From positions 44,413 through 108,412 of IMG/VR virus record IMGVR_UViG_3300034072_000578: DNA of 64,000 nt; one strand, written 5' to 3'. Below, in pieces: positions 462 to 38,785 of this stretch; positions within the stretch are counted from its first letter, which is position 1; each line of letters opens with the position of its first letter. A program made the position numbers and the translations under genes. The notes beneath the pieces were generated by a model that was not told the origin of the DNA, made no database searches, and saw only the letters and a program-made list of their open reading frames with translations. The stretch comes from a virus.

Positions 462-539
462 TGCGGGATAGTAGCAGTCTGGTAGCTCGCCACTCTCATA
501 AGGTGGAGGTCGAGGGTTCAAATCCCTCTCCCGCATCCA
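462..539 (+). tRNA. trnM: tRNA-Met(CAT), initiator-like scaffold
   Basis: TGCGGGA/TCCCGCA acceptor, loop CTCATAA, T-loop TTCAAAT, encoded CCA; lacks the three G-C pairs of a typical initiator anticodon stem. Confidence 0.85.
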
Positions 540-546
540 GATTTTC

Positions 547-622
547 GGGGAAGTAGCTCAGTTGGATAGAGCAAAGCCACTTTAGGGCTTGTGCGTTGGT
601 TCGAGTCCAACCTTCCCCACCA
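547..622 (+). tRNA. atypical tRNA, anticodon loop ACTTTAG (nominal Lys TTT; identity uncertain)
   Basis: Clean cloverleaf: GGGGAAG/CTTCCCC acceptor, AAGCC/GGCTT anticodon stem, TTCGAGT T-loop, CCA; has C instead of the invariant U33. Confidence 0.7.
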
Positions 623-654
623 CAGTTAAACAACTTAGTAACGACTAAAGTATA

Positions 655-836
655 TGCCCGTCTTGCTAAGGTATCTATGGACAACTGCTGATGCACGTTA
701 AATCCCTGAGGCAAGGGTTTGCAGAGGTCATAGGTTTATTTGTTTGTGACGGGAGATTACCACTCAGAAGCTACGGCTTGCTGCGGTAATGATACCACCG
801 GGTTTACGGTCATCCTGCTTATAGCAAAAACCGGCA
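655..836 (+). ncRNA. putative structured ncRNA (~180 nt) inside the tRNA cluster
   Basis: Nested helices TTGCTAAG/CTTATAGCAA, GTATC/GATAC, CTATGGAC/GTCATAG and ATTACC/GGTAAT, plus an AAGC-TACG-GCTT UNCG hairpin; no credible ORF. Confidence 0.6.
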
Positions 837-857
837 AGTTTTAGCCTTAAAGGCTTT

Positions 858-935
858 CGGGAATTAGCGCAGTCTGGTCAGCGTGTGCCCTTTGGAGGGG
901 TGAGGTCGTAGGTTCGAATCCTACATTCCCGACCA
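858..935 (+). tRNA. trnP: tRNA-Pro(TGG)
   Basis: Cloverleaf, loop TTTGGAG, CCA. Confidence 0.92.
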
Positions 936-1006
936 TTTACAGCTACGGCTGCTTGGGTGAGCAAAACAAATACCTTGGAACTTTGGCTAGTTCCTAAAAG
1001 CTCAAT

Positions 1007-1092
1007 GCGGGATTGGTGGAACTGGATATACACATATGCCTTAGAAGCATACGCCGAAAGGATTGAGAGTTCGAGTCTCTCATCCCGCACCA
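1007..1092 (+). tRNA. trnL: tRNA-Leu(TAG)
   Basis: Loop CTTAGAA, long variable arm, CCA. Confidence 0.93.
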
Positions 1093-1143
1093 GTTTATTT
1101 TAATAAGAAACTATGTTATTATCCTCACAAACGAGGTAATAAC

Positions 1144-1698
1144 ATGGACAGATCAAAATTCTATTCTACGGTAAGAGCTAAACTAGGCTCTCTTACACAA
1201 TCACAAATCAATGGCTTTGAGACAGTGCTAGATGCGCTAGAGGGTCAACCTCTTTCGCACAGAGCGTATTCGCTCGCAACTGCTTGGCATGAAACCAATA
1301 AAACTATGCTCCCTGTTGTCGAAGCCTATTGGCTTTCGGAAGCATGGCGTAAGAAGAACTTAAGATACTATCCTTGGCATGGTCGCGGTTATGTTCAATT
1401 AACATGGGAATATAACTACAAGAGAGCAGATAAAGAACTTGGTCTAAAAGGGACTTTACTTGCTAATCCTGATCGTGCTATGGAACCTAAGATTGCTGCT
1501 AAGGTTATGCGCCTAGGTATGGATGAGGGATGGTTTACTAACGTAAAGCTATCTGACTGCCTACCAATGAGAGGCGTAGCTACTAGAGCGCAATACATGA
1601 AAGCAAGAACAATCATCAATGGATCGGATAAAGCCGACCTAATTGAAGATTATGCGCAGGTGTTCGAAAGAGCGCTTCGTGATGGAGGTTTAGTATAA
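1144..1698 (+). CDS. endolysin, glycoside hydrolase family 19 (chitinase-like)
   Basis: LATAWHET and GRGYVQLTWEYNY motifs, AR.IING tail; GAGG RBS precedes the ATG at 1144. Confidence 0.85.
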   Translation: MDRSKFYSTVRAKLGSLTQSQINGFETVLDALEGQPLSHRAYSLATAWHETNKTMLPVVEAYWLSEAWRKKNLRYYPWHGRGYVQLTWEYNYKRADKELGLKGTLLANPDRAMEPKIAAKVMRLGMDEGWFTNVKLSDCLPMRGVATRAQYMKARTIINGSDKADLIEDYAQVFERALRDGGLV

Positions 1699-1755
1699 TG
1701 AGTAGTTGTAGAACAAGAGATATTCCAGACCAGCAATGGGGTGGATAATCTATAT

Positions 1756-1837
1756 CCCCTAGTAACAACGGCGGCTACGAACCGCTAGTAACGTAACTGG
1801 ATTGAAAATGCAGGTTCGAATCCTGTCTAGGGGTCCA
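1756..1837 (+). ncRNA. tRNA-like RNA with an Arg(ACG) anticodon arm but no D-arm
   Basis: CCCCTAG/CTAGGGG acceptor, 7-nt linker, GGCGG-CTACGAA-CCGCT, 23-nt extra region, GCAGG-TTCGAAT-CCTGT, CCA. Confidence 0.7.
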
Positions 1838-1846
1838 TTTTAATAA

Positions 1847-1921
1847 CGGCGTGTAGCATAACGGTTAGTGCATCCCACTGATAATGGGCAGATGGAAGTT
1901 CGATTCTTCCCTCGCCGACCA
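1847..1921 (+). tRNA. trnI: tRNA-Ile(GAT)
   Basis: Loop CTGATAA, T-loop TTCGATT, CCA. Confidence 0.9.
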
Positions 1922-1981
1922 ATTTAAACTGTCCTCATTTGGCCAGTTATGACGAATTACGGGACTTAATTGTCCATATAT

Positions 1982-2055
1982 GGCCGGTTACGTTAATAGT
2001 AAACTACCCTCCTTACAAGTGGGGATCAGCGGGGCAGAACCGCTACTGGCTACCA
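1982..2055 (+). tRNA. trnV: tRNA-Val(TAC) with non-canonical T-loop
   Basis: Loop CTTACAA; T-arm AGCGG-GGCAGAA-CCGCT; CCA. Confidence 0.8.
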
Positions 2056-2061
2056 TTTATT

Positions 2062-2469
2062 ATGACATACAAAATAACAAACTGTAATTATTGCAATGTA
2101 GAATTCAGATATTGTGATTCGAAAAGAACTGGTAAGTTTTGTTCTAACCAGTGTTTTCAAGATCATAGATATGAATTCGTTACTAGGCCGAATATTCTTT
2201 TAGGTTTGACGGACGCCAAACAATTAAGAGATAGACTTCTAAAAGATACTCCTTATTGCTCAGAGTGTGGAGTAGGAGAGTTTTGGGAAGGTAAGAAGTT
2301 ATCATTACAGATCGATCATTTTGATGGCGATAGTGATAACAACGCCCCTTATAACTTAAGAGTTTTGTGTCCTAATTGTCATTCTCAGACTGATAATTAT
2401 GGGATTAAAAATAAAGGATCGTCATCTAGACGTTCTAAATATCTAAAAGAATATAAATCTAATTACTAA
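2062..2469 (+). CDS. HNH endonuclease
   Basis: CxxC ... LQIDHFDGDSDNN..NLRVLCPNCHSQT. Confidence 0.88.
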   Translation: MTYKITNCNYCNVEFRYCDSKRTGKFCSNQCFQDHRYEFVTRPNILLGLTDAKQLRDRLLKDTPYCSECGVGEFWEGKKLSLQIDHFDGDSDNNAPYNLRVLCPNCHSQTDNYGIKNKGSSSRRSKYLKEYKSNY

Positions 2470-2542
2470 TTTCAGGGTGACTAGCTTAGGTTGGTTATAA
2501 AGAAGGCTAGTTTTAAAGTTCGCCTCCACCGATTAATTCATT

Positions 2543-2632
2543 GGATCATTGGGCGAGTGGTTTATGCCGTGTCCCTGCTAAGGACATGCACCTTAACCGG
2601 TGCCGTTGGTTCGAATCCAACATGATCCGCCA
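2543..2632 (+). tRNA. trnS: tRNA-Ser(GCT)
   Basis: Loop CTGCTAA, long variable arm, G73, CCA. Confidence 0.93.
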
Positions 2633-2659
2633 GTTTAACACTAATAAGAGTATCTAATA

Positions 2660-2911
2660 ATGCGTATCTATTTTGCCGCTAGCAACAATGGTGATGGTTC
2701 TTCAAGCGTCCATTTCTTCGAAAGTAAGAAGTGTATCGACCTTTTAGAAGAGCATGACCTAGAAGGATATGGCGGTTGCGAAGGTGGCGACTGGATGGAT
2801 ATTGACGGTTCTGTTACTGGAATTAATATCGAAACTTTAGAAGAAGTAGTTGACTACCTAGTTGACTACGGCTATATAGATGAAGAAGACGCAGAGCGTC
2901 TAAAAGCTTAA
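2660..2911 (+). CDS. hypothetical acidic protein
   Basis: 83-aa ORF between tRNAs with RBS. Confidence 0.6.
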   Translation: MRIYFAASNNGDGSSSVHFFESKKCIDLLEEHDLEGYGGCEGGDWMDIDGSVTGINIETLEEVVDYLVDYGYIDEEDAERLKA

Positions 2912-2918
2912 AAGACAT

Positions 2919-3001
2919 GCTAGTGTCGCATAGTGGTCCATTGCACCGATCTTGTAAGTCGGAATTCCAGATCGTGGGTTCGAATCCCACCACTAGCTCC
3001 A
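2919..3001 (+). tRNA. trnT: tRNA-Thr(TGT)
   Basis: Loop CTTGTAA, enlarged variable region, CCA. Confidence 0.88.
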
Positions 3002-3058
3002 TTAATAATTAAGGCCGGAACACTACGGTAAAGAGCTTCGATAGAAGCTTGCCTTAAT

Positions 3059-3135
3059 GGGGAATTAGCTCATTTGGGTAGAGCGTCGCACTTGCACTGC
3101 GAAGGCAAAGAGTTCGAACCTCTTATTCTCCACCA
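3059..3135 (+). tRNA. trnA: tRNA-Ala(TGC)
   Basis: G3:U70 pair, loop CTTGCAC, CCA. Confidence 0.94.
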
Positions 3136-3146
3136 GATTAAATAAC

Positions 3147-3243
3147 GGAAGTATGGCAGAGTCTGGTTTATCGCGCTCGCCTTGAAAGCGAGAGTGGGCC
3201 TTAAACAAGTCCACCGTGGGTTCGAATCCTACTGCTTCCTCCA
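3147..3243 (+). tRNA. trnS: tRNA-Ser(TGA)
   Basis: Loop CTTGAAA, long variable arm, CCA. Confidence 0.92.
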
Positions 3244-3249
3244 GAATAC

Positions 3250-3325
3250 GGGTCGGTAGCTCAGTTGGTAGAGCATGGGGCTGAAAATCTCAGTGTCGAG
3301 AGTTCAATTCTCTCCCCTCCCACCA
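3250..3325 (+). tRNA. trnF: tRNA-Phe(GAA)
   Basis: Loop CTGAAAA, CCA; two acceptor-stem mismatches. Confidence 0.88.
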
Positions 3326-3376
3326 TTTACAACTTCGGTTGCTCGGACTTGCCACAGTCCTTTCAAAATTCCTAAC

Positions 3377-3450
3377 GCGGGCTTGGCGTAGTGTTAGCGT
3401 GTCTGGCTTCCAACCAGAAGGCAAGAGTTAGATTCTCTTAGTCCGCACCA
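3377..3450 (+). tRNA. trnG: tRNA-Gly(TCC)
   Basis: GCGGGCT acceptor, loop CTTCCAA, T-loop TTAGATT, CCA. Confidence 0.87.
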
Positions 3451-3468
3451 TAATTAAATACGGCACTT

Positions 3469-3960
3469 ATGACAGAATTAGATAGGTTTTTATCTTATAT
3501 TTTAGTTTCTGAAACAAACTGTTGGGAATGGCAAGGCGCTTTAAGTGAAAAGGGCTATGGCGTTTTCAACATGGGTTCTAGAAAAGAAGGTAATAAAAGA
3601 ACTATAAGAGCGCACCGATATTCTTATATGAAATATAAAGGCGAATTGGGCGAACTTCTAGTCTGTCATAAGTGCGACAACAGAAAGTGTTGCAATCCAG
3701 ATCATCTTTTTTTAGGAACTGATGAGGATAACATTAGGGATATGTGGGCTAAGGGTAGGCAACCTCCACCTTTAGTCCAACTAGGGTCAGCAAATAATAA
3801 TGCCATCTTGGATGATGTTAAAGTCGCTAAAATCAAATCTCTACTAGATACTTTTAACAATAAAGAATTAGGCGCTATGTTTGGCGTCAAGCATTCAACT
3901 ATATCCAAAATAAGAACGGGTAGAACTTGGGTGCATGTTCAGGGATCGTCTAATGGGTAG
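3469..3960 (+). CDS. HNH homing endonuclease
   Basis: CWEWQG..GYG..AHR.SY..VCHKCDNRKCCNPDHL.LGT..DN..D plus a C-terminal HTH-like segment. Confidence 0.9.
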   Translation: MTELDRFLSYILVSETNCWEWQGALSEKGYGVFNMGSRKEGNKRTIRAHRYSYMKYKGELGELLVCHKCDNRKCCNPDHLFLGTDEDNIRDMWAKGRQPPPLVQLGSANNNAILDDVKVAKIKSLLDTFNNKELGAMFGVKHSTISKIRTGRTWVHVQGSSNG

Positions 3961-4013
3961 GACAACTGGTTTTGATCCAGTTAATAGGGGTTCGAGTCCC
4001 TTTCCCTGATCCA
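3939..4013 (+). tRNA. trnQ: tRNA-Gln(TTG)
   Basis: TCAGGGA/TCCCTGA acceptor, loop TTTTGAT, CCA; overlaps the end of the HNH ORF. Confidence 0.9.
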
Positions 4014-4023
4014 ATTCAAATAC

Positions 4024-4097
4024 GGGCTATTCGTTTAATGGTAGGACGCTGGATTGTCTATCCGGCAGCAGGGGTTCGATTCCCCTATAGCTCGCCA
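4024..4097 (+). tRNA. trnD: tRNA-Asp(GTC)
   Basis: Loop TTGTCTA, G73, CCA. Confidence 0.92.
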
Positions 4098-4218
4098 TTT
4101 GTCAGAAGGGGCGCTAATCCCTTCGCCGCTCCCTAACCGGTTATTAGGTGTTAGGGTGAGCTAGTGGAGTGAGTGGCGCTAGCAATAACTAAAGGAAGAC
4201 GTTCCTACCACAAACTAT

Positions 4219-4295
4219 CGATGGCGTAGTGTAAACGGTGAACATGGCGGATTGTGATTCCGCAGTTGAGGGTTCGAATCCCTCCGTCACGACCA
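4219..4295 (+). tRNA. trnH: tRNA-His(GTG)
   Basis: Loop TTGTGAT, TTCGAAT T-loop, discriminator A, CCA; irregular acceptor stem. Confidence 0.85.
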
Positions 4296-4310
4296 AATAC
4301 AGGATTAATT

Positions 4311-4718
4311 ATGAAGAGTTTTGACGAACTAAAGCAAGAACGTAACGAGCAACGATTAACAGGCTTACTAAACCAGCTTGTTTATTTCGATGAACGATTA
4401 GATGGTGCCATTAAAGCCCACGAAAAGAAGATGGATGAGCTTTATTTTCTCGAAGAAGAACTAAAGCAACTAACAGCTAACCCTTCTCTCCTAACGCAGG
4501 AGCAGGTCTCAGCTATTATTGAGAAGCTTAATAAGTTAATCTATGCCACAGGCGGGATCGTTTCTGGTAATCATATTATAGGTGGCTCTATTACCGCAGA
4601 CAAGATTGTAGCCCATTCTATTTGTGCAACGAATTTGTCGGATTGGCGTAACGCATCAAGCTCAGTAACAATTGCTGGCGGACAGGTAGCAAGTAACACT
4701 ATTTCAACTACTAGATAA
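4311..4718 (+). CDS. hypothetical protein (coiled coil plus a GSITADKI-type repeat)
   Basis: AGGA RBS before the ATG at 4311; C-terminal IIGGSITADKIVAHSI resembles tail-fibre repeat units. Confidence 0.55.
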   Translation: MKSFDELKQERNEQRLTGLLNQLVYFDERLDGAIKAHEKKMDELYFLEEELKQLTANPSLLTQEQVSAIIEKLNKLIYATGGIVSGNHIIGGSITADKIVAHSICATNLSDWRNASSSVTIAGGQVASNTISTTR

Positions 4719-4725
4719 TCAACTT

Positions 4726-4800
4726 AGGGGTGTAGTATAATGGCTATTACAGTCGACTCCAAATCCTCAGATCAGGGTTCGATTCCCTGCTCCCCTGCCA
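4726..4800 (+). tRNA. trnW: tRNA-Trp(CCA)
   Basis: AGGGG start, loop CTCCAAA, G73, CCA; two anticodon-stem mismatches. Confidence 0.85.
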
Positions 4801-4817
4801 TTTATAAGAGAATTTAA

Positions 4818-5123
4818 ATGAGCTTAGAAAAAGTATTAGAAATTTACAATGAAGACAGTTGGGGTCTAGAAGACTATATTGTCGATAAGACTGACTCCGA
4901 TTGGGTTCAGGATCATAAATACCAGTATCGTTCCTACATTATCAAGTATGAGGACGGCAAGTTTTACCAGATCAACGAAAGCCGTTCCGGCTCTTATCAT
5001 TCGGATTGGTATTACAACCCAGCAGAGATTTTCGAAGTCGAAAGACAAGAAAAAGTAGTTACTAAGACAGAAATCACTTGGCATATGGTCGGTGATCGTG
5101 TAGAGAGTAAAGATCGCTGGTAA
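4818..5123 (+). CDS. hypothetical protein
   Basis: 101-aa ORF with RBS. Confidence 0.65.
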   Translation: MSLEKVLEIYNEDSWGLEDYIVDKTDSDWVQDHKYQYRSYIIKYEDGKFYQINESRSGSYHSDWYYNPAEIFEVERQEKVVTKTEITWHMVGDRVESKDRW

Positions 5124-5133
5124 TAAGAATTTT

Positions 5134-5209
5134 TGGCTAGTAGCTTAACCGGTAAAGCCACTCACTGTTAATGAGTCAGATGCAGGTTCGACCCCTGCCT
5201 AGTCAGCCA
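5134..5209 (+). tRNA. trnN: tRNA-Asn(GTT)
   Basis: Loop CTGTTAA, G73, CCA. Confidence 0.92.
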
Positions 5210-5211
5210 GA

Positions 5212-5436
5212 ATTAGTAAGCGAAGAAGTAAACGCTAGTAGAAAGCATGTGACCTACAGCATGTTAGTAGATAGCGCGGGGCAACAGCCTTAGAGTTTAA
5301 TTAGTCAGTTCCTGAACCAAGAGCGTCGGAACTAAGTGGAAAGAAGCCTGTAGGAGGCGCATCGCCGCAATGCTAATTAAGACCCGTTGAACAGCCGACT
5401 ATATCGATTAGGCTTCGGCATTCTTCGCTTACTAAT
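5212..5436 (+). ncRNA. putative structured ncRNA (~225 nt)
   Basis: Perfect 16-bp terminal helix ATTAGTAAGCGAAGAA/TTCTTCGCTTACTAAT enclosing further stems (CGCTA/TAGCG, TTAATTAG/CTAATTAA, AGTTCC/GGAACT). Confidence 0.65.
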
Positions 5437-5465
5437 AACAATCCCTAATAAGGGTTTATTTAATC

Positions 5466-5542
5466 GGGGCCATCGTCTATGTGGCTAGGATAGTTGGTTT
5501 TCACCCAGCAGAACCGGGGTTCGATGCCCGGTGGCCCCACCA
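5466..5542 (+). tRNA. trnE: tRNA-Glu(TTC)
   Basis: Loop TTTTCAC, CCA. Confidence 0.9.
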
Positions 5543-8482: not shown

Positions 8483-9052
8483 ATGATAACTCTATTAACA
8501 ACACCTGCAACACCTAGATTAGAAGGTTATATAGAAGACTTCCGCTCTTTTGCTATTAGACTTCATGGCGATCAGCGTTATGGTGACTTCCCTTATCCTT
8601 TCCACCTAGCCCATGTAGAAGAAACTCTAGTAGCAAATGGCTACGATGACTTTAAATATCGAGCTAGCGGATGGCTTCACGATGTCCTAGAAGACTGCGA
8701 TATGTCTATTAACAGGCTGGCCGAATGCTTCGGCTCTGAGATTGCTGCTATGGTGTTCGCTTGCACTGGCGAAGGGGCCAATCGTAAGGAACGCAATGCT
8801 AGCGTCTACAAAAAACTAGCAGCACTTCCCGCAGCAGCGCCGGTTAAAGTAGCTGATCGTATTGTTAATATGAAGTTCAGTGTAATCAATAAGAGCAAGC
8901 AACTAGGAATGTATATTAGAGAGTTCGGGGATTTTTCTAATAATGTCCGCCCTCTTATGACAAACACAACGAAAGACGCTCTTCTGTGGAATCGACTAGA
9001 AGACGTAGTAGGACTAGCGGTTAAAAGAATGTCAGAAACAAAGGTTGCGTGA
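8483..9052 (+). CDS. HD-domain hydrolase, RelA/SpoT small alarmone hydrolase (Mesh1)-like
   Basis: H.DQ.Y..PY..HL..V, LHDVLED, VKVADR..N. Confidence 0.8.
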   Translation: MITLLTTPATPRLEGYIEDFRSFAIRLHGDQRYGDFPYPFHLAHVEETLVANGYDDFKYRASGWLHDVLEDCDMSINRLAECFGSEIAAMVFACTGEGANRKERNASVYKKLAALPAAAPVKVADRIVNMKFSVINKSKQLGMYIREFGDFSNNVRPLMTNTTKDALLWNRLEDVVGLAVKRMSETKVA

Positions 9053-9073
9053 CGTTCCCGAATCGGCTATAGC
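9045..9073 (+). promoter_or_regulatory. sigma70-type promoter with GANTC in the spacer
   Basis: TTGCGT-17-TATAGC with CGAATCG at 9059-9065, just upstream of a tRNA. Confidence 0.6.
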
Positions 9074-9085
9074 CCTGAAAATCAA

Positions 9086-9162
9086 GCGCGTTTAGCTCAG
9101 TTGGTAGAGCAGTCGGCCCCTAATCCGACAGGCCACGGGTTCGATCCCTGTAACGCGCACCA
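9086..9162 (+). tRNA. atypical tRNA with 8-nt anticodon loop CCCCTAAT (Arg CCT or suppressor-like CTA)
   Basis: GCGCGTT/AACGCGC acceptor, GTCGG/CCGAC stem enclosing 8 nt, TTCGATC T-loop, CCA. Confidence 0.7.
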
Positions 9163-9296
9163 GTTTCTAAGGTGAGTATCCCTCTTAAAGCGAAGTTACG
9201 CCTACTCGGTCATAGTAGCCTTCCGCCTTATTAAGTAAGGAATTAAATATGAACTATATGGAGCATGATATTTCCCGAATATGAAGGGAGATATTC

Positions 9297-9635
9297 ATGA
9301 AGAAACAACACTACGAAATTAACAAAGTTCAAAACCGCCTTTGGGGACTTTCGGGCGTCCTCGCCTCTTATGGCCCTAGAGATATTGGCTGGTGGCGACG
9401 TAATTTTTACGCCCTCGAAAACTTCGGTGATCGTCACCGGGTTATGAACGAGAAGCGTCAAAATCGTAACGCTCGCAAAGACGAAGAAATCCAGCACTAC
9501 AAGGTCAAGCTTCGCAGCAGACGTATGAACGTCCCCACTAAATGGGACGATGAACATATCTCTAAGTGGGGCGGCAAGTCTTGGAAGCTTGGGACTAAGG
9601 CCCGCAAACAGTGGGCTAAGAACGTTCGCCACTAA
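9297..9635 (+). CDS. basic, Trp-rich hypothetical protein
   Basis: R.RR..VP.KWDD...KSWK..K.RKQW C-terminus; GGGAG RBS. Confidence 0.65.
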   Translation: MKKQHYEINKVQNRLWGLSGVLASYGPRDIGWWRRNFYALENFGDRHRVMNEKRQNRNARKDEEIQHYKVKLRSRRMNVPTKWDDEHISKWGGKSWKLGTKARKQWAKNVRH

Positions 9636-9712
9636 CTATAACTAGTGGCAAGGGTAATGTAGCATTGAAGGTCGCTTGTTTCGTGCCATTTCCGGGGTAG
9701 CAACCGGCCCGC

Positions 9713-9740
9713 TTGACAACTTAGAATTACGTGTTATATT
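9713..9740 (+). promoter_or_regulatory. strong sigma70 promoter of the leader/Pth2-like operon
   Basis: TTGACA-16-TATATT with extended -10 TG. Confidence 0.7.
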
Positions 9741-9767
9741 GAAAGCTCACTACAGAAGGAAAGTAGA

Positions 9768-9852
9768 ATGCACTAGCTGCCCCATCGTCCTCCTTAAAGT
9801 AGTCAGTATCTAACCCAAAGCGATTTACTGATTTATTTTAAGATTAAAGGAC
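9768..9852 (+). promoter_or_regulatory. putative translational attenuator: uORF M-H-(UAG)-L-P-H-R-P-P-(UAA) plus an RBS-sequestering hairpin
   Basis: AAGGA RBS; ATG CAC TAG CTG CCC CAT CGT CCT CCT TAA; 9787-9808 pairs with 9826-9852, including the downstream RBS. Confidence 0.6.
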
Positions 9853-9859
9853 AATACAC

Positions 9860-10186
9860 ATGACTAAGAACTATTTCGACCATTACAATACCCTAGCCAA
9901 CAACAAAGACGTTTCAAGAGCAGACGTTTATACTCGCTGCATCATCAAGGCCATTCGTGCTAAGAGCGAGGACAAGGTTGGCGTTGCAATCGCCCTACTA
10001 AAGAAGGCTTTCACTAAGCCCACAAACCCTACTAAGGTCGCCAACGGCGCTCTACAGTATTGGGGCATCAATCACGCTCGCTATGAAGCCAGCCTGAAAT
10101 ATCGTTATCTAACGAAAGAATATCTAACAGAAGCCGAACAAGGCGCTTGGGAAGTAATTTTCCAAGCCACCAAAGGCGTAGCATAA
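9860..10186 (+). CDS. hypothetical protein (first gene of the attenuated operon)
   Basis: 108-aa ORF, AAGGA RBS, TAATG-coupled to the next gene. Confidence 0.7.
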   Translation: MTKNYFDHYNTLANNKDVSRADVYTRCIIKAIRAKSEDKVGVAIALLKKAFTKPTNPTKVANGALQYWGINHARYEASLKYRYLTKEYLTEAEQGAWEVIFQATKGVA

Positions 10187-10509
10187 TGACTCCATATTAT
10201 TGCTATATCTTTGTGCGCCAAGATATAACACCGGAGCAGCAACTAATCCAATTTGGGCATGTTGCTGCTAAGGCAGGCGCTAAGAGTCCCGATAAGCTTT
10301 GGGAGTATGTTCATTTCGTTGGGATCGGAGTTAGAAACGAAAGGGAGCTTCACAAAGCTGCGCTCCTAATGGCTGACAATGACATTCCTTATTCTACCTT
10401 TAATGAAGGGGCCATGGACGATGAGCTAACAGCCGTCGCCTCAGTCCCGGTAAGAGGTCCGACTAGGGAAGTGTTCAAGAATTATAAGACGTTACGCTTC
10501 GGAAATTGA
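10186..10509 (+). CDS. peptidyl-tRNA hydrolase 2 (Pth2/PTRHD1)-like protein
   Basis: YIFVRQDI...IQ.GH.A....V.NE.EL.....F.E....ELTAVA..P....F..Y..L matches the Pth2 fold pattern. Confidence 0.7.
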   Translation: MTPYYCYIFVRQDITPEQQLIQFGHVAAKAGAKSPDKLWEYVHFVGIGVRNERELHKAALLMADNDIPYSTFNEGAMDDELTAVASVPVRGPTREVFKNYKTLRFGN

Positions 10510-10528
10510 AATTTTCCTCTTTCCTACA

Positions 10529-10577
10529 CGGGCGGGAATCGCTATCTGTTTCAATACAGGGCGATTCCCGCCCTTTT
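10529..10577 (+). terminator. intrinsic terminator
   Basis: GGGCGGGAATCGC/GCGATTCCCGCCC stem followed by TTTT. Confidence 0.8.
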
Positions 10578-10599
10578 CGTTTCTGGGGAGTTATGAGCG

Positions 10600-10773
10600 G
10601 TGGAAGTTTACGTAATTTTGTATGGGTGTGCTGCTAAGCCCGAATTATCCGATGAAGTGAAGGGCTACCTTTACAACCGGATCGACGCCCAAGAATATTG
10701 CGACCAGCAGAATGAAGAAGCGGAAGAAGGCTATGCTTACTGGTTTGAGACAGCCCCGCAACTGATGGTATGA
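10600..10773 (+). CDS. small acidic protein (57 aa, GTG start)
   Basis: GGGGAG RBS, ATGA-coupled to the next gene. Confidence 0.45.
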   Translation: MEVYVILYGCAAKPELSDEVKGYLYNRIDAQEYCDQQNEEAEEGYAYWFETAPQLMV

Positions 10774-11141
10774 TAATAACCTTGCTAGTATGCTTGGTAA
10801 TTAAGCATTTCATCTTCGATTTCGTTTATCAACCAGCCTATCAATGGCAGAACAAAGGAAGATACGGGCATTGGGGCGGACTAGTTCATTCCGCTCAACA
10901 TGGGATAGCTTCTGCCGTAATATTGCCATTCTTTATTGATGATAAGTCAGTAATAGCCTATCTGGTAGCGTTCGAATTCATCGTTCACTACCATATGGAC
11001 TACTTCAAGATGAAGTTGAATGCACATATGGGGTGGAAGTGTAACACCCATTATGAGTTTTGGGTTTGGACAGGTTTCGACCAACTAATCCATTCACTAA
11101 CTTACCTAGTAATGGCGGAAGTAGTTTACCGTTACAGCTAA
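10770..11141 (+). CDS. DUF3307-family membrane protein
   Basis: KH..FDF..Q, H...HG, HY..D..K, GFDQ..H. Confidence 0.8.
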   Translation: MIITLLVCLVIKHFIFDFVYQPAYQWQNKGRYGHWGGLVHSAQHGIASAVILPFFIDDKSVIAYLVAFEFIVHYHMDYFKMKLNAHMGWKCNTHYEFWVWTGFDQLIHSLTYLVMAEVVYRYS

Positions 11142-11175
11142 GGTAAGAAAAAGTTTCTCTCGCCAAACTTTTCTG

Positions 11176-11204
11176 TTGACGGGCGAATCTCAGGTCGCTA
11201 GACC
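11176..11204 (+). promoter_or_regulatory. sigma70 promoter with GANTC in the spacer
   Basis: TTGACG-17-TAGACC, GAATC at 11185. Confidence 0.65.
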
Positions 11205-11278
11205 GAAATCATCTACTGGCTATCGGGTGGTTTAGTTAGTAGGTTCCTTTTTTAACCGCTCTGGTAAGAGGTATTACC

Positions 11279-11878
11279 ATGACTCAGTTGAACGCCGAAA
11301 CGGCATCTGAATTCGATTTCGTTGCCCTGATCGACGCTTCGGGTTCGATGGGCAATCCGTCCGTCAAGATGCCGGGGAAGACCCGCTGGCAGGAAATGCA
11401 AGAGTCGCTGCTGGGCTTCATCCGCGCCATCGAACCGTTCGACGCTGACGGCATCGATGTCGGTGTGTTCGGCCCGAACTTCGAAGTCGAAGAAGGCGTT
11501 ACGTCCGCCACCATCGACAAGCTGTTCGCTTCGCGTGGTCCGCGTGGTTCGACCCCGCTGCATGATGCCATCGCGTGGACCATCGACAAGCAGAAGAAGA
11601 CCGGCAAGAAGACCTTCGCCGTCATCTTCACCGATGGCGAGCCGAACGATCAGGCGCTGGTCGCCAAGCTCATCACCGATGCTTCGAACAACATCGCGAA
11701 GGATGAAGACCTGACGTTCCTCTTCATCCAGATCGGCGACGACAAGGCGGCGCGGAACTATCTCGATCATCTGGACGACCAGTTGACCGGCAAGTTCGAC
11801 ATCGTGGACGTTGTGAGCGTCACCGAAGCGGACTCGATGGAACCGCTGGCCCTCATCAACAAGGCCATTGCCGACTAA
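11279..11878 (+). CDS. Ter-associated von Willebrand factor A domain protein
   Basis: MIDAS DASGSM, GSTPL, FTDGEP, FIQIGDD..A..YL..LDD. Confidence 0.88.
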   Translation: MTQLNAETASEFDFVALIDASGSMGNPSVKMPGKTRWQEMQESLLGFIRAIEPFDADGIDVGVFGPNFEVEEGVTSATIDKLFASRGPRGSTPLHDAIAWTIDKQKKTGKKTFAVIFTDGEPNDQALVAKLITDASNNIAKDEDLTFLFIQIGDDKAARNYLDHLDDQLTGKFDIVDVVSVTEADSMEPLALINKAIAD

Positions 11879-11989
11879 TCGCCGGCAATACATCACCAAC
11901 CTAGTTAGTTGGTATCGTTCTGAATAACCTTGGGGTAGTAGAAGTAGGAAGAAATGCTTCTACTACCCCTTTTAGTAGCGGGGTTTAAT

Positions 11990-12436
11990 ATGGGTTTCCT
12001 CGATAGCCTCAAAGGCATCGCCTCCAACTTCATGGCTGATGCTGAAAAGGCTCTTAGCCGCATGTCCGACAAGGCGACTTTCATTCGCACCGTCCAAGCT
12101 TCCTATCTGGTCGCTGCCGCTGATGGCAACGTATCGGATGAAGAGAAGGTGGTTCTTGGCCGCGTCATCGCCAAGAAACTTCCTTCCTTCAAGTCGTCGG
12201 AGGTTGCTAAGGCAATCGATGACTGCGCCGAAGAAATGTCCCTCTCTGCCGTAGCTGGTAAGGTTGCTCTTATGGAGAGCATCGAAAAGGCTGCTGGCAC
12301 TGATGGTGCAAAGGTCATCATGCTTGGCATGTTGGCCGTGGCCAATGCCGACAATGAGTTCCAACCCTCCGAACAGCAGGTGGCGCGGGCCATTTGCGTC
12401 AAGCTCGGTCTTCGCCCGCAGGAGTATGCGCTATAA
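11990..12436 (+). CDS. terB: TerB-family protein
   Basis: LVAAADGNVSDEEK and VANADNEFQPSE repeats. Confidence 0.8.
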   Translation: MGFLDSLKGIASNFMADAEKALSRMSDKATFIRTVQASYLVAAADGNVSDEEKVVLGRVIAKKLPSFKSSEVAKAIDDCAEEMSLSAVAGKVALMESIEKAAGTDGAKVIMLGMLAVANADNEFQPSEQQVARAICVKLGLRPQEYAL

Positions 12437-13035
12437 TGGAATGGTTACTTGCTAACCTGATGACGTTCGGTAGTATCGTTCTGCTGGACATCGTTCTCTC
12501 CGGTGATAACGCCGTTATTATCGGGGCAAAAGCCGCCAGCCTTCCCGCCGAACAGCGTAAGAAGGTCATCAAATACGGCATGTTCATGGCCGCAGGTTTC
12601 CGCATCGTTCTGCTGTTCCTCGCGACCTACCTGCTACAGATTCCCGGTATCCGACTCGCCGGTGGTCTTGCCCTGCTCTATGTGGCGTGGGGTATGTTCA
12701 AGGATATCAGGGACAATGGTATCGTTGATGGTAGCACGGAGAACGTAACGGCTGCTGCGAACTATCGTTCCGCACTCTTCGCCGTTGCTCTTGCCGATCT
12801 TTCGATGTCCATCGATAACATTCTTGCCGTTGCTGGTGCTGCCGGGGATCATTACTTCGCGCTCATCTTCGGTATCGTGTTGTCGATCTTCATCATGATC
12901 TTTGCTGCCAATGCGGTAGCGAGACTCATTGAGAAGTATCGTTGGCTGGCTTGGTTCGGCTTGCTGCTGGTCCTCTATATCGCGGGTCATCTGATCTATC
13001 AGGACGTTCCAGTCATCGTGTCTTGGACTTCCTAA
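12436..13035 (+). CDS. terC: TerC/YjbE-family membrane protein
   Basis: LDIVLSGDNAVII and ADLSMSIDNILAVAG, multiple TMs. Confidence 0.9.
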   Translation: MEWLLANLMTFGSIVLLDIVLSGDNAVIIGAKAASLPAEQRKKVIKYGMFMAAGFRIVLLFLATYLLQIPGIRLAGGLALLYVAWGMFKDIRDNGIVDGSTENVTAAANYRSALFAVALADLSMSIDNILAVAGAAGDHYFALIFGIVLSIFIMIFAANAVARLIEKYRWLAWFGLLLVLYIAGHLIYQDVPVIVSWTS

Positions 13036-13189: not shown

Positions 13190-14006
13190 CCGGCAAGGAA
13201 ACGAACCGGTCGCTGCTTGAAGCGGATAAGCTAGAGTAATCTGGTGAAAGGTTAGGAGCCAAACCAAGCCGCCTAGTAATAGGTCAACTTAAGCAACATG
13301 GAACTGACCGAAAGGTTCCTCTATACAAGTAGGGGATAGATTGAAGGATAAGGGTTTTAGGTCCGAAAGGATAACTAGCAGAGCTAATCGGTGAGCTAGT
13401 GAAGTCGCAAACACCTGCACCAAGCAAAACTTATTCGAAGTCGATAGTGAACCATAAGGGTAATAGTTCGACCATTAGCGTGGAAGAGCATTAGCCAGTT
13501 ACCAAAGGTGGAGACACTTTACGTAACCGTTGAGTAGCCCGCAAGGCGAAAGACATGAGGCGTGTGGCATGTTGTTCCCCAAAAGGGAATGATACCATTG
13601 GACAAGCACGTCTTAACTGGAAACAACTTAGCATAACGGTAATGCGATGGACTCTTAATCCATTGATTGTTGGTTCAAATCCAGCAGTTGATTCATCAAC
13701 GCAAAGCCTTGTCCAGCTATAAGTGAAAGGCACCTAAGCCCTACCTAGAGTGGGGGCATGAAGTCTCGCAAGGATGGATTGTTTGTAGTGGAAGAACTCA
13801 TTGCTCTTTAGCGGGAGCTTAATGGAGGTAAAACTTCAATGGGATTAAGATACTATGAGTAGCTTGTAGTGATATCGCAAATGCCAGCGATTAATAAAAT
13901 GGCGGTGTTGGTAGTTACTATGATACCTTGACCGGGTTATAGTGGAAAAGGCCCTAAACAATAAGGGGTTTAAGACTGCCCTTAGTAAGTGTATTCTCAG
14001 CTTGCT
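13190..14006 (+). ncRNA. GOLLD-like giant structured RNA
   Basis: About 800 nt without a credible ORF, many GNRA-capped hairpins, segment GTAACCGTTGAGTAGCCCGCAAGGC and 3' GTGTATTCTCAG that I recall from GOLLD RNAs, adjacent to tRNAs; boundaries approximate. Confidence 0.75.
13622..13693 (+). tRNA. trnK: tRNA-Lys(CTT) embedded in the GOLLD-like RNA, no encoded CCA
   Basis: CAACT/AGTTG acceptor core, ATGGA-CTCTTAA-TCCAT, GTTGG-TTCAAAT-CCAGC. Confidence 0.75.
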
Positions 14007-14016
14007 AATTACATAT

Positions 14017-14065
14017 GGGGATAATCGCGTAAAGTCATTGGTCTGACCGCTCGGTTTCCCCACCA
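14017..14065 (+). ncRNA. 49-nt minihelix-like RNA ending in ACCA
   Basis: GGGGA/TCCCC-A-CCA closing an irregular hairpin. Confidence 0.5.
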
Positions 14066-14066
14066 T

Positions 14067-14144
14067 GGCCTATGTAGCTCAGTCCGGTTAGAGCGTCCGA
14101 TAAATAAGGAAGGTCGTTGGTTCGAATCCAACCCTAAGGCCCCA
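14067..14144 (+). ncRNA. tRNA-like RNA with a shortened anticodon arm
   Basis: Canonical D-arm and T-arm, CCA; anticodon arm is TCC-GATAAATAA-GGA. Confidence 0.65.
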
Positions 14145-14145
14145 T

Positions 14146-14242
14146 AGCGCGGTAGTTTGAGTGTGCTTCTGGACAGAAGTATGCAGACAAAACAGCTTTC
14201 GGAGGATTGAAGACGGGGGTTTGAATCCCTCTCGCGCTTCCA
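14146..14242 (+). ncRNA. tRNA-like RNA with an expanded D-domain and no clear anticodon
   Basis: AGCGCGG/TCGCGCT-T-CCA, inserted hairpin GTGTGCTTCT-GGAC-AGAAGTATGC, T-loop TTTGAAT. Confidence 0.6.
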
Positions 14243-14244
14243 AC

Positions 14245-14354
14245 GGGACGGTAATTCAGCGGTAGAAGACGAAACCTTGTCTAAGCCCTTTGAGGGTGAT
14301 GGACCCCAAGACAAGGCCAGATAGTCGGAGGTTCGATCCCTCCCCGTCCCGCCA
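14245..14354 (+). ncRNA. tRNA-like RNA with a branched domain replacing the anticodon arm
   Basis: GGGACGG/CCGTCCC-G-CCA, D-like arm, CCTTGTCT/AGACAAGG helix enclosing a CCCT-TTG-AGGG hairpin, GGAGG-TTCGATC-CCTCC. Confidence 0.65.
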
Positions 14355-14570
14355 CTTAATAACATTGAAACATGATGGTCTGCACATTGTCATGTTTCAA
14401 CCTTGTTAAGTTTCACATTATCGGTGGGCTGAAATCCAGCGATAGAGGCAAGCCCCTAAGCAAGGCTCCTACGTGAACCTAATCCATAGTGTTAGGAGCG
14501 ATGATTTACGCTAGCTATGATTAGGGGAAGCTAGAAAGGTTATAGACCTGATAAACTTCCCCTTCTTAGT

Positions 14571-14647
14571 GGACCCTTAGCTCATTTGGTTAGAGCGACG
14601 GACTTTTAATCTGTAGGTGCTGGGTTCGAATCCCAGAGGGTCCACCA
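14571..14647 (+). tRNA. trnK: tRNA-Lys(TTT)
   Basis: Loop CTTTTAA, CCA. Confidence 0.93.
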
Positions 14648-14770
14648 CTTACTTAGTAGTGATAGAATACGGGTTGGTTCTTCAATTTGCTTTTGCCCAA
14701 AAGCTGTCGATCCGTATTCTTTCTTTATTAAGTGGGGTGTTATGTATTTTCTTACGTTATGACCTACCAA

Positions 14771-14854
14771 GCCCTCTTGGCGTAATTGGTAGGCGCAGCA
14801 GACTTAAAATCTGCCGGTTGATCCGTCTCGGTTCGAGTCCGAGAGAGGGCACCA
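14771..14854 (+). tRNA. trnL: tRNA-Leu(TAA)
   Basis: Loop CTTAAAA, variable arm, CCA. Confidence 0.93.
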
Positions 14855-35418: not shown

Positions 35419-35494
35419 TGGTGGGCGTGGTAGGGATCGAACCTACGACCTAGCCGTTATGAGCGACCAGCTACTACCACTGAGCTACACGCCC
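35419..35494 (-). tRNA. tRNA(CAT): elongator Met or Ile2
   Basis: GGGCGTG/CACGCCC acceptor, loop CTCATAA, CCA. Confidence 0.88.
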
Positions 35495-35666
35495 ACTAAT
35501 TAATAAGCCGCTACGCCGTAATTGGCTTCACCGGGACGGTTCGCACTGCGGTTGACCTGCTGGACGATGCAGTTATCACCGGAGCCTGCGACCTCATAAT
35601 AGAGGTTGGGGTTGCCACGAACAAGGTTGTTCAGCCCATTTGCCCGCTTACGTGCCTTCTCTTCGG

Positions 35667-36059
35667 TCATGCTTCCGTTGCCTCTTCTGTGGTTGCTAGT
35701 TTGCGCATTTCTGCTGCGATTTCGGGGAAGCTTTTGTAGCCGCCATCGTTCATGGAAACGAATTCGCTGATCTGCGGATGACTTAGGCCGGATATGCCAG
35801 CGACATATAACGACCGATCAAAGATGCCACCGCTATCCCCATGATACCGGTCATCGGCTTGGATGATGCGGGACATTGCGTCCTGTTCCCGATCTGTGGT
35901 TTCCGTATGAACCGCGATCATCACATGAAGGCAACAAAAGCCACCTTTCTGGACGTGGGGGCTGAATTCTCCACCGCCCCAAGTATGTCGCGCTTGTGGG
36001 AACTTACCGCTTTCAAGGGCTTCTGCGGTCTTAAGAAGCAACTCTTTATTAAGAGCCAT
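35667..36059 (-). CDS. hypothetical protein (paralog of 16915-17268)
   Basis: AEALESGKFPQAR..WG...GFCCLHV...MND...SFPEIA. Confidence 0.7.
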   Translation of the reverse strand: MALNKELLLKTAEALESGKFPQARHTWGGGEFSPHVQKGGFCCLHVMIAVHTETTDREQDAMSRIIQADDRYHGDSGGIFDRSLYVAGISGLSHPQISEFVSMNDGGYKSFPEIAAEMRKLATTEEATEA

Positions 36060-36074
36060 ATTAAATACCTTGTT

Positions 36075-36150
36075 TGGAACCCCGGACGGGAATCGAACCC
36101 GCGCTATACCTCTTTTGCAGGGAGGCGCATTTCCACTTTGCTACCGGGAT
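36075..36150 (-). tRNA. trnC: tRNA-Cys(GCA)
   Basis: Loop CTGCAAA, U73, CCA. Confidence 0.88.
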
Positions 36151-36316
36151 TACAGGTTAGCGAAGAAGCTCTTTACCGGCGAGGTAGGGAGCGCGAAGGA
36201 CAGCAATGAAGCTATCGAAGTTGAAGCCGGTTAGATCGCCTTCGCTATTGGCGAGGAAGTAACCGAGGGTAAGATAAGCGATAAGAAAGTATAACATAAA
36301 AGCTTTCTGTGAAAGA

Positions 36317-36394
36317 TGGTGATCCCGGTTGGACTCGAACCAACAACCTGTCGCTTAGAAGGCGACCGCTCTTTTCCAGTTGAGCTACGGGACC
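36317..36394 (-). tRNA. trnR: tRNA-Arg(TCT)
   Basis: Loop CTTCTAA, CCA. Confidence 0.93.
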
Positions 36395-36436
36395 ATGTGG
36401 GGTAGCTTTTACACTACCCCGTTGAAATGTCAACCG

Positions 36437-37180
36437 TTATTTGCGGGCGACGGCGGGAGTGAAATAGCACTTGATGCTGTCGATGATGTCCTTGGAATGG
36501 ATCACCGGCAACGTTACCGTCCGACCAGCAAGGAAGTTGGTGATGGCGGTTGCCGTTCCCTTCTTCTTGTTGAAGTTATCGGAGGGGTGACATACCGAGG
36601 TTGCTACCTCGAAAGTCTGGGCATCCCGTTCATTCCCGTTGAAGCCTTCCGGCGTCTTGTAAACGACGGTCAAACCGACATTGGGAATATCTTGGGAATA
36701 AATATGGACCACCTTGAGTCCATGATGCTGGAGAATGACGCCGTTGTCCTGCGTCTCGAAAGGCTTCATGGCCTTCTTATGGGCGTCCAGCATCGGGGCG
36801 ACGATATCGGAAAGGGTTTCACCTTCCGGCTTCTCCGAAGCTTCCTTGGCCAGCGCTTCGACCGCGCCGATGATCGCATCGCCGATCACATCACCGAGCG
36901 TCAAAGGCTGCTCGCTACCTTTCTCGCGAAGACCGGTGAGAATGTCACTGAGCGTCTTGCCAGCGGGAGGAACATGATTGCGAAGATGGTCCTTCGCCGA
37001 CTCTTTCAGTTCGGCGAGCTTTTCGGCCGGAACACCGGGCTTGGGCGAATAGAGAACGCCGCCCATTTCGAACGAACCATCTTCATATTCGGTGAAGGAA
37101 TGCCCGTTAATGATTTCGGTCTTCCCCTCACCAGTAATTGCGCCCAAGATCAGCGGAAGAATATCACTAAGACCGTTCAT
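36437..37180 (-). CDS. hypothetical protein
   Basis: Repeated LSDIL/LGDVI motifs; C-terminal ATSVCHPSDNFNKKKG...A domain. Confidence 0.7.
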   Translation of the reverse strand: MNGLSDILPLILGAITGEGKTEIINGHSFTEYEDGSFEMGGVLYSPKPGVPAEKLAELKESAKDHLRNHVPPAGKTLSDILTGLREKGSEQPLTLGDVIGDAIIGAVEALAKEASEKPEGETLSDIVAPMLDAHKKAMKPFETQDNGVILQHHGLKVVHIYSQDIPNVGLTVVYKTPEGFNGNERDAQTFEVATSVCHPSDNFNKKKGTATAITNFLAGRTVTLPVIHSKDIIDSIKCYFTPAVARK

Positions 37181-37198
37181 AAAGAATGCTTTCTAATA

Positions 37199-37286
37199 TG
37201 GTGGGGAAGGTGGGATTCGAACCCACTCAAGGTTTCCCTAGCAGATTTACAGTCTGCCCCAAGCTCTCCAACTCTGGCGCTTCCCC
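37199..37286 (-). tRNA. trnY: tRNA-Tyr(GTA)
   Basis: Loop CTGTAAA, variable arm, CCA. Confidence 0.92.
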
Positions 37287-37327
37287 ACGATTGGACGGGA
37301 GCCGATTCCCCCGTCCGTGATGCCCTT

Positions 37328-38353: not shown

Positions 38354-38444
38354 ATATAATATGCTTTCTAATGGAGAAATGGACGCACGAACCCTAGGGA
38401 AGCGTTCTGAATTGAACATGGGGGATGCTTCCCTAGGGAAACTG

Positions 38445-38681: not shown

Positions 38682-38698
38682 GTCTTACTTTCCGTTGT

Positions 38699-38785
38699 TG
38701 GTAGGGGTAATGGGACTCGAACCCATACGGCCTTTCGGCCACTGCATTTTGAGTGCAGCGCGTCTACCAGTTCCGCCATACCCCC
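38699..38785 (-). tRNA. trnL: tRNA-Leu(CAA)
   Basis: Loop CTCAAAA, GGCC-GAAA-GGCC variable arm, CCA. Confidence 0.93.

Follow-up and report, generated by a model that had tools for sequence, protein, structure and literature searches.

A candidate translational switch gated by nonsense suppression ahead of a Pth2-like operon in a tRNA-rich phage genome

We analysed a 64 kb stretch of phage DNA, hereafter the window, which is the 3' part of the 108,412-bp IMG/VR record IMGVR_UViG_3300034072_000578; the record has direct terminal repeats. At 9713-10584 of the window lies a compact transcription unit with a promoter, a very short leader open reading frame (ORF) that contains an in-frame amber codon, a predicted RNA hairpin, two coupled genes and a terminator. 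The second gene encodes a protein that resembles the peptidyl-tRNA hydrolase Pth2. We propose that the leader is a translational switch for these two genes and that the switch responds to suppression of the amber codon. The features of the unit, together with a tRNA gene upstream of it, are listed below, where SD stands for Shine-Dalgarno sequence.

9086-9162, + strand: tRNA gene with an 8-nt anticodon loop, CCCCUAAU, that contains CUA; candidate decoder of amber or of UAGN and the likely trans-acting trigger
9713-9740, + strand: sigma70-type promoter, with TTGACA at 9713-9718, a 16-nt spacer and a TG-extended TATATT at 9735-9740 (TGtTATATT)
9756-9760, + strand: leader SD, AAGGA, 7 nt ahead of the ATG at 9768
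9768-9776, + strand: leader segment 1, ATG CAC TAG (M-H-amber); the gate is the TAG at 9774-9776
9777-9797, + strand: leader segment 2, CTG CCC CAT CGT CCT CCT TAA (L-P-H-R-P-P-stop), in frame with segment 1; TAA at 9795-9797
9787-9852, + strand: predicted SD-sequestering hairpin of 66 nt, from RNA folding
9846-9851, + strand: gene 1 SD, AAAGGA, hidden within the base of the hairpin
9860-10186, + strand: gene 1, 108 aa, predicted all-helical; homologue of an N-terminal domain that is fused to a Pth2-like domain elsewhere
10186-10509, + strand: gene 2, 107-aa Pth2-like protein, translationally coupled to gene 1 through an ATAATG overlap
10529-10584, + strand: intrinsic terminator, a 16-bp GC-rich stem and a U-run

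The promoter matches the consensus at 11 of 12 positions and is the best-scoring site between 8000 and 12500. At the other end of the unit, the terminator hairpin (10529-10574; z -6) is followed by UUUUCGUUUC. Between them, the Pro-Pro codons of leader segment 2 double as an anti-SD sequence. RNA folding pairs GUCCU 9787-9791 with AGGAC 9848-9852 at the base of the hairpin and 9793-9808 with 9826-9842 in its upper stem (dG -16.7 kcal/mol, z -4.2; z -2.5 for the full 115-nt leader). The original prediction had described a promoter, a ribosome-binding site, a micro-ORF, two coupled genes and a terminator here, and we found each of them where it had placed them; its hairpin pairs were reproduced exactly. 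The leader ORF has its own SD and start codon and contains the 5' arm of the SD-hiding hairpin, as in attenuators of the ermC and secM type. It stands directly ahead of the gene that it would regulate, and its putative stall site overlaps the SD-hiding structure, as is seen with arrest peptides. The window leader is present, identical or nearly so, in contigs of three other studies, a comparison that speaks to presence and near-identity only.

The same arrangement is found ahead of distant homologues. The homologues that we compared are 27-39% identical and come from viral and metagenome contigs, and the counts of loci given here are counts among the matches listed. Initial scans of viral contigs with single-protein queries had returned no matches. 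At least 26 unique and independent leaders ahead of homologues follow the pattern SD-ATG-x(0-15)-TAG(-x4-TAG)-x(4-13)-xxPP, all in frame. Some leaders carry a second TAG four codons after the first, and the Pro-Pro pair is followed either by a stop codon or by a run-on. Examples are MRNKQL-TAG-QVRGPP-stop (L049), MTRIRDIPR-TAG-SIRAPP-stop (L032), ML-TAG-NYIRGPPSL-stop (L020), ...GVGG-TAG-PYYAIGPP-stop (L051) and ...STGWG-TAG-VPDT-TAG-VDYEARGPP... (L006), beside MH-TAG-LPHRPP-stop in the window. The M-x-TAG start seen in the window leader recurs in L020, L023, L004 and L008, and phages Arash, ME3 and RsoM2USA have it as well. An arrest-type core is present in 18 of the 26 leaders (RGPP in 14, RAPP in 2, RDPP in 1 and RSPP in 1), and the Pro codons vary synonymously (CCT CCT, CCA CCT, CCT CCC, CCG CCA and others). 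The expectation that an in-frame M-x-UAG-x-R-(x)-P-P-stop and a hairpin would be conserved ahead of homologous genes, on which the original prediction had staked its case, was thus borne out by at least 26 leaders.

The reading frame itself carries a signal. In the 60 nt that precede the Pro-Pro codons, TAG occurs 36 times in frame and 15 times out of frame (36/51; binomial p 6e-8). In the same 60-nt stretch there are 3 TAA codons in frame and 26 out of frame, and 0 TGA codons in frame and 36 out of frame. Given the excess of in-frame TAG and the near-absence of TAA and TGA, this frame is open except for TAG.

The leaders also share a structure. For 22 of them the stretch running from the motif up to the start codon was folded, and 21 had at least five bases of the SD region paired with a distant upstream partner. 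The fold of lowest energy in 20 of the 22 is a single long hairpin; at its foot the CCUCC-like Pro-Pro codons are paired with the main-gene SD, although the stem sequences vary from leader to leader. Median z was -3.6 in the leaders versus -0.5 in 162 control gene starts, and 73% of leaders versus 8% of controls scored positive for both pairing and z (Mann-Whitney p 6e-9). Taken together, the frame statistics, the conservation of the peptide and the predicted structure indicate that the leader frame past the TAG is translated. They likewise indicate that the arrangement in the window goes beyond chance, as the whole grammar and the SD-sequestering hairpin recur in distant homologues.

In every leader at least 4 codons separate the TAG from the first Pro codon of the pair, and eight leaders, that of the window included, have exactly 4. 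A ribosome that holds UAG in its A site covers roughly this four-codon stretch. This spacing suggests that a ribosome terminating at the TAG would leave the hairpin closed and that a ribosome standing on R-P-P would open its base.

We also observed that in ten leaders (L006, L010, L025, L043, L046, L047, L051, L005, L012 and L019) the residues that close the first segment, just ahead of the TAG, are conserved as ...GWG, GG or PDT. Two of these leaders, L012 and L019, are continuous in frame with an upstream gene that ends ...(D/E)YEGL-TAG. Homing endonucleases, which are common in tRNA clusters, have C-termini similar to the P.GW..G pattern. The residues before the stops (PDT, GG and GWG) may tune termination against suppression.

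In at least 13 phages the gate is direct: the Pth2-like frame itself starts M-x(1-4)-stop and then runs straight into the conserved YxYxFVRQD strand. Several of these 13 have no ATG, GTG or TTG after the stop, so that readthrough would be the only route to the Pth2-like protein in those phages. Six of the 13 are cultured. They are Acinetobacter phage vB_AbaM_ME3 (MT-stop), Salmonella phage Arash (ML-stop), Ralstonia phage RsoM2USA (ML-stop), Cronobacter phage GAP32 (MAQ-stop), Yersinia phage fHe-Yen9-04 (MSH-stop) and Serratia phage BF (MTH-stop), and their hosts all use the standard code. The gated gene is absent from the GenBank annotation of Serratia phage BF, Yersinia phage fHe-Yen9-04 and Ralstonia phage RsoM2USA, and GAP32_397 is truncated; the loci at which it is missed, truncated or split are L054, L056, L058, L059 and L060. 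Gating would explain these missing, truncated or split annotations in several cultured jumbo phages. In Arash (L054; OQ632216.1, record 49176-49247) the gene is split into gp85c and gp84c, and a tRNA annotated as tRNA-Phe reads CUA in ARAGORN.

Gated genes are linked to suppressor tRNA genes. At most loci ARAGORN reports a tRNA(CUA) in the flanking 4 kb, and it often directly adjoins the leader or the gene. For the cultured phages that were tested, as for two long contigs, the distance between tRNA(CUA) and gene is 3-125 kb. Gated loci that lack a tRNA(CUA) are short fragments. A canonical CUA in a 7-nt loop is found at about 30 related loci and in the cultured phages. The gate codon is TAG in 35 of 37 cases. 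The only TAA-gated leader among the matches listed (L041, MAPDT-TAA-IILKPP-TAG) stands beside a tRNA(UUA), and the only TGA-gated gene among them (L003, MEH-TGA-PHLPV...) stands beside a tRNA(UCA). This match of gate codon and anticodon points to a phage suppressor tRNA, competing with release factors, as the input of the switch, and argues against failure of release factor 1 (RF1) as such. The original prediction had pictured a readthrough sensor set off by a shortage of RF1, by suppression or by a defence toxin. Its in-frame gate is conserved, and the pairing of gates with anticodons favours a phage suppressor tRNA over RF1 shortage or a toxin as the trigger. In many related loci the Pth2-like module lies inside or at the edge of a tRNA array.

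The tRNA gene at 9086-9162 of the window stands alone, 600 nt upstream of the leader. ARAGORN gives its anticodon as 'ccta', and it scores 57 bits against the Rfam tRNA model. Its acceptor stem, GCGCGU, is that of the tRNA(CUA) genes at related loci. The loop CCCCUAAU is ungapped in contigs of two other studies, and an assembly slip is therefore not its origin. Downstream of the gate, the zero frame (PP-TAA, 9789-9797) and the +1 frame (open to the TAA at 9811-9813) both lead into the 5' arm of the hairpin. Other tRNA-like genes with irregular loops lie beside gated modules (L008, 4354-4428 and 4431-4504; L024, 4450-4523; L006, 111-185). ARAGORN labels these loops '(ta)', '(ttta)', '(aata)' and '(ct)', and one of them could be an ochre-type decoder.

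The genome around the unit uses the standard code. Simple ORF calling with table 11 gives a coding density of 88%, and 18 of 150 ORFs terminate at TAG. When TAG is read as sense the density rises from 0.86 to 0.89, compared with 0.88 for TGA and 0.90 for TAA as sense; a TAG-specific gain in density was looked for in the window genome and none was seen. These ORF-end counts and the density comparison rule out a general recoding of TAG in this genome.

What does the switch control? The gene 2 protein has no Pfam match at E<=0.1 and does not reach the gathering score of PF01981 (PTH2), a family that 17 of 44 relatives match weakly (best E 1e-4). A profile of the family searched against the PDB finds peptidyl-tRNA hydrolase 24bt_A (E 4e-4). 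The AlphaFold model of gene 2 has a pLDDT of 94, and in a Foldseek search of the PDB its top 12 matches are all Pth2 or Bit1 (E 4e-6 to 2e-4, TM 0.70-0.77). Judging from this model, gene 2 has the alpha/beta fold of Pth2. The label 'Pth2-like' given earlier is therefore sound at the level of fold, from the model and Foldseek, and does not extend to a Pfam match for the window protein. The fold is that of archaeal and eukaryotic Pth2 (PF01981; PDB 1wn2, 2zv3, 3erj, 1q7s and 1xty), whereas sequence identity to known Pth2 is only 12-22% and the phage family has a helical N-terminal domain fused to it or paired with it. The motifs R-x-D and Q-x-x-H-A (strand 1 and helix 1) are common to the gene 2 family and Pth2, and the canonical G-K lysine of Pth2 aligns with a Gln in the family profile alignment.

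Gene 1 accounts for the N-terminal domain. It is 36% identical over 102 aa (blastp, E 8e-15) to the N-terminal part of two-domain proteins (about 225 aa) that have the Pth2-like domain as their C-terminal half. This homology suggests that the window operon encodes a two-domain enzyme in split form. A hidden Markov model of the N-domain finds it fused, or in an adjacent upstream gene, in 30 of 52 related loci. The gene 1 model (pLDDT 90.6) is all-helical. Gene 1 had no match in Pfam, PHROG or NCBIfam and no usable match in the ESM Atlas, and structure searches with Foldseek and VIA-align returned only generic helical bundles (best Z 6.1), none of them convincing. A modelled complex of the two proteins scored 0.01, which counts neither for nor against binding. 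The Pth2-like family comprises 1,375 clusters (50% identity, E<=1e-10), about half of them fused and about half stand-alone. In three ungated members, L057 (XacN1 ORF364), L061 (Xoo-sp13_327) and L055 (RAS14), the Pth2-like domain is joined to another kind of N-terminal domain, one that carries the HD-type motif HDIGKP.

Based on the parts of the unit, the in-frame grammar, the pairing of the hairpin with the SD, the linkage to tRNA genes, the match of gate and anticodon and the predicted Pth2 fold, all of which come from sequence and its comparison, we propose a model in which the unit is a nonsense-suppression-gated translational switch for the Pth2-like operon. We give this reading a probability of roughly 0.75. 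We infer that UAG is read through, that the ribosome pauses at xPP, and that translation is thereby activated. In the OFF state, RF1 would terminate the leader at UAG 9774-9776 after two codons. The terminating ribosome would reach only to about 9786-9787, and the hairpin at 9787-9852 would stay closed. The CGU-CCU-CCU codons would keep the gene 1 SD paired, and both genes would be silent. In the ON state, UAG would be decoded, most likely by the tRNA at 9086-9162 in competition with RF1. The ribosome would then continue in frame through L-P-H-R-P-P and pause at the Pro-Pro(-stop) codons, which are also the anti-SD. This would melt the base and the 5' arm of the hairpin and free the SD, so that gene 1 can be translated and, through coupling, gene 2 as well. 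Their products would form a split enzyme of the peptidyl-tRNA-hydrolase type, with an N-domain and a Pth2-like domain. Leaders with two TAG codons would be expected to respond more steeply.

The least certain part of this model is what the enzyme does. We favour a role in recycling or limiting peptidyl- or aminoacyl-tRNA, scaled to the tRNA and suppressor activity of the phage. Such a role could take the form of peptidyl-tRNA recycling matched to the tRNA pool, rescue after readthrough, or negative feedback on the suppressor. More tentatively, and with odds that we put somewhat below even, the suppressor tRNAs of standard-code phages may have a dedicated, conserved target in that they trans-activate a Pth2-like enzyme gated by an amber, ochre or opal codon. 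The gate would operate either directly or through a natural sensor of suppression that combines the in-frame stop, an RGPP core and the SD-hiding hairpin. The enzyme and its N-domain would in turn act on peptidyl- or aminoacyl-tRNA of the suppressor or of the phage, and tRNA and enzyme would then be a homeostat of stop-codon readthrough, or of tRNA recycling, in the infected cell.

Several observations weigh against the proposed switch, especially in the window itself. The core of the window leader is HRPP, with Arg at -1 rather than -2 relative to the Pro-Pro pair, and thus differs from R-[A/G]-P-P. As the nascent chain would be only 9 residues long with this core, it is uncertain whether a true arrest occurs; a pause at Pro-Pro-stop, or plain transit of the ribosome, may have to suffice for the window leader. 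The window tRNA is not a canonical amber suppressor with CUA in a 7-nt loop, and it has no U33. It may decode the UAG triplet, the quadruplet UAGG or AGG, while the leader reads UAG-C. RNAalifold predicted no pairs on a MAFFT alignment of 17 leaders, because the arms of the hairpins are not alignable by sequence. The conservation of the leader was established among homologues that are 27-39% identical, which are more distant than the closest homologues, P0002-P0004 (52-59% identical). Some members of the family are not gated (L018, L027, L037, L039, L044, XacN1 and RAS14). Finally, all of our results are computational.

Other explanations need to be weighed against the proposed switch. The leader might be a sensor of RF1 activity, or of translation quality, in which depletion or inhibition of RF1 by stress, a toxin or takeover opens the gate without any phage suppressor tRNA. 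Such a sensor would account for the dominance of TAG among the gates, as UAG is read by RF1 alone, and for the conserved residues before the stop, which are expected if termination efficiency is tuned. It would also sit well with the atypical window tRNA, which may not read UAG. However, it does not predict that the gate codon follows the neighbouring anticodon, as it does for TAA with UUA and for TGA with UCA, and it cannot explain the TAA-gated leader (L041) because UAA is read by both release factors. Moreover, nearly all gated phages for which sufficient sequence is available have a suppressor tRNA, and a ribosome deprived of RF1 would, if there were no decoder, stall at UAG short of the Pro-Pro codons. 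We consider this explanation unlikely. Marginally less likely again is +1 or quadruplet decoding at UAG-C by the 8-nt-loop tRNA, in which the hairpin would be opened by transit of the ribosome with no Pro-Pro pause. The path would be TGC CCC ATC GTC CTC CTT AAA GTA GTC AGT ATC, ending at the TAA at 9811-9813 in the hairpin loop, and this frame is indeed open to 9813 (ORF 9676-9813). Classical +1 frameshift suppressor tRNAs have an extra base in the anticodon loop; in the window tRNA, too, the loop carries an additional base on the 5' side of CUA, and this loop is ungapped in independent contigs. Yet the zero-frame PP-TAA is kept exactly as in relatives with 7-nt-loop tRNAs, and a CCUA anticodon would match UAGG rather than UAGC.

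The remaining two explanations dispense with readthrough, and we find both improbable. The leader could act at the level of RNA, with UAG as a T-box-like specifier for a tRNA anticodon or with the leader as a binding site for a protein, and the peptide would then be a by-product. A CCUCC anti-SD encodes Pro-Pro by itself in one of three frames, and direct pairing with an anticodon would likewise predict that the type of stop covaries with the anticodon. But such an element would not require the TAG-PP spacing of 4-13 codons to be always a multiple of 3, or TAA and TGA to be nearly absent from that frame. Neither would it conserve Arg-Gly before the Pro-Pro pair with synonymous variation, or keep the pair as CCG CCA in L042, a poor anti-SD. 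The direct in-frame gates that have no alternative start work by translation only, and an Rfam search of 9636-9859 for curated cis-regulatory RNAs, T-boxes included, gave no match at E<=10. The least probable case is that the window copy has no regulatory role, its hairpin being a stability or processing element and its ATG-CAC-TAG a chance occurrence or a minigene of the bar type; two-codon minigenes are known from lambda bar. The z of the whole leader is just -1.4 to -2.5, and HRPP is a degenerate core, as this case would have it. Against it, the family grammar is complete in the window, in the right order, frame and spacing, and, bar one probable chance match, the 108-kb genome has no other TAG-gated PP leader preceded by an SD. 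Furthermore, the leader shows no variation among four studies, unlike the ORF upstream of it. As a general principle, a bar-like two-codon minigene was ruled out, since the first segments in relatives are 1-15 codons long.

The proposed switch combines elements that are known separately. RGPP and RAPP are the strongest arrest cores that are refractory to EF-P, while RDPP and RSPP are partly permissive (PMC12992588; PMC10951233), and no other tetrapeptide is as strongly excluded from bacterial proteomes as RGPP (PMC12992588; PMC10951233; PMC7897499). Leaders with RAPP or RGPP cores (ApdA, ApdP, ApcA and SecM, and upstream ORFs of Streptomyces) are likewise short upstream ORFs that end in or near R-[A/G]-P-P. 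In them, too, the stalled ribosome stands on the 5' arm of an SD-hiding structure, and the commonest core found here, RGPP, is the strongest published (PMC12992588, PMC10951233, PMC7897499). Unlike these leaders, the phage motif lies behind an in-frame stop and would be translated on readthrough alone, and the gene regulated is that of a Pth2-like enzyme. The phage leader peptides are also only about 9-25 aa long and have no signal or membrane segment, so that a pulling force could not release them; the window core, HRPP, differs as well. In ermC and cat/cmlA attenuation, a paused leader ribosome similarly melts a hairpin over the downstream SD, but the input there is an antibiotic bound to the ribosome and not the decoding of a stop codon. 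In prfB, which encodes RF2, an early in-frame stop likewise meters termination against alternative decoding. However, in prfB the alternative is a +1 frameshift at a slippery CUU-UGA-type site with an SD-like stimulator upstream, and the product under control is the release factor, whereas the phage leaders would keep the frame, with a suppressor tRNA as the competitor and a different enzyme as the target; in all relatives the continuation is in the zero frame.

Suppressor tRNAs have been given a role in phages before. For phages with recoded genomes (code 15 or code 4), the 'code-change module' hypothesis holds that a suppressor tRNA licenses genes with in-frame stops (bioRxiv 10.1101/2021.08.26.457843). 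Those phages have in-frame stops across many late genes. The gated phages, by contrast, use the standard code and have the stop in one family at one position near the start, and their gating is often indirect, through the leader. Engineered amber-suppression switches with an early UAG (PMC6412442) follow the same logic, and the phage unit would be their natural counterpart. In the XacN1 genome paper, targets of the amber suppressor tRNAs of that phage were sought and none were found (PMC5852040). The original prediction had known of no description of such a system, and our full-text literature search for a stop-gated switch of this kind found none either. What is new is the combination: an in-frame stop placed before an arrest core, in standard-code phages, ahead of one conserved enzyme and next to a tRNA gene.

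If our model is true, the suppressor tRNAs of standard-code phages gain a concrete, conserved target. The leader would be the first natural leader-peptide attenuator that takes nonsense suppression as its input, and thus a ready-made sensor of UAG readthrough. It would also place RGPP and RAPP arrest cores in phages, in very short cytosolic peptides. In addition, a large uncharacterised Pth2-like family with a novel helical partner domain would be tied to tRNA biology in phage tRNA islands. The cultured Salmonella, Cronobacter, Serratia, Yersinia, Acinetobacter and Ralstonia phages make the switch directly testable.

Some features of the surrounding sequence can be added. The window has 26 tRNA genes, and the 25 other than that at 9086-9162 lie in three clusters (462-5542, 13622-14854 and 35419-38785). 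A DNA-level similarity search against known phages and an Rfam search of 9000-11500 each gave the tRNA as the sole match. Between the tRNA and the leader lies an ORF of 112 aa (9297-9635) with no assigned function. In a relative that is 96% identical, about 40 of 52 differences fall inside this ORF, and the leader and operon are far more conserved. Just 3' of the operon, at 11279-13035, are three ORFs whose translations appear vWA-like, TerB-like and TerC-like. The TerB-like ORF is preceded by a long terminator-like hairpin at 11932-11969.

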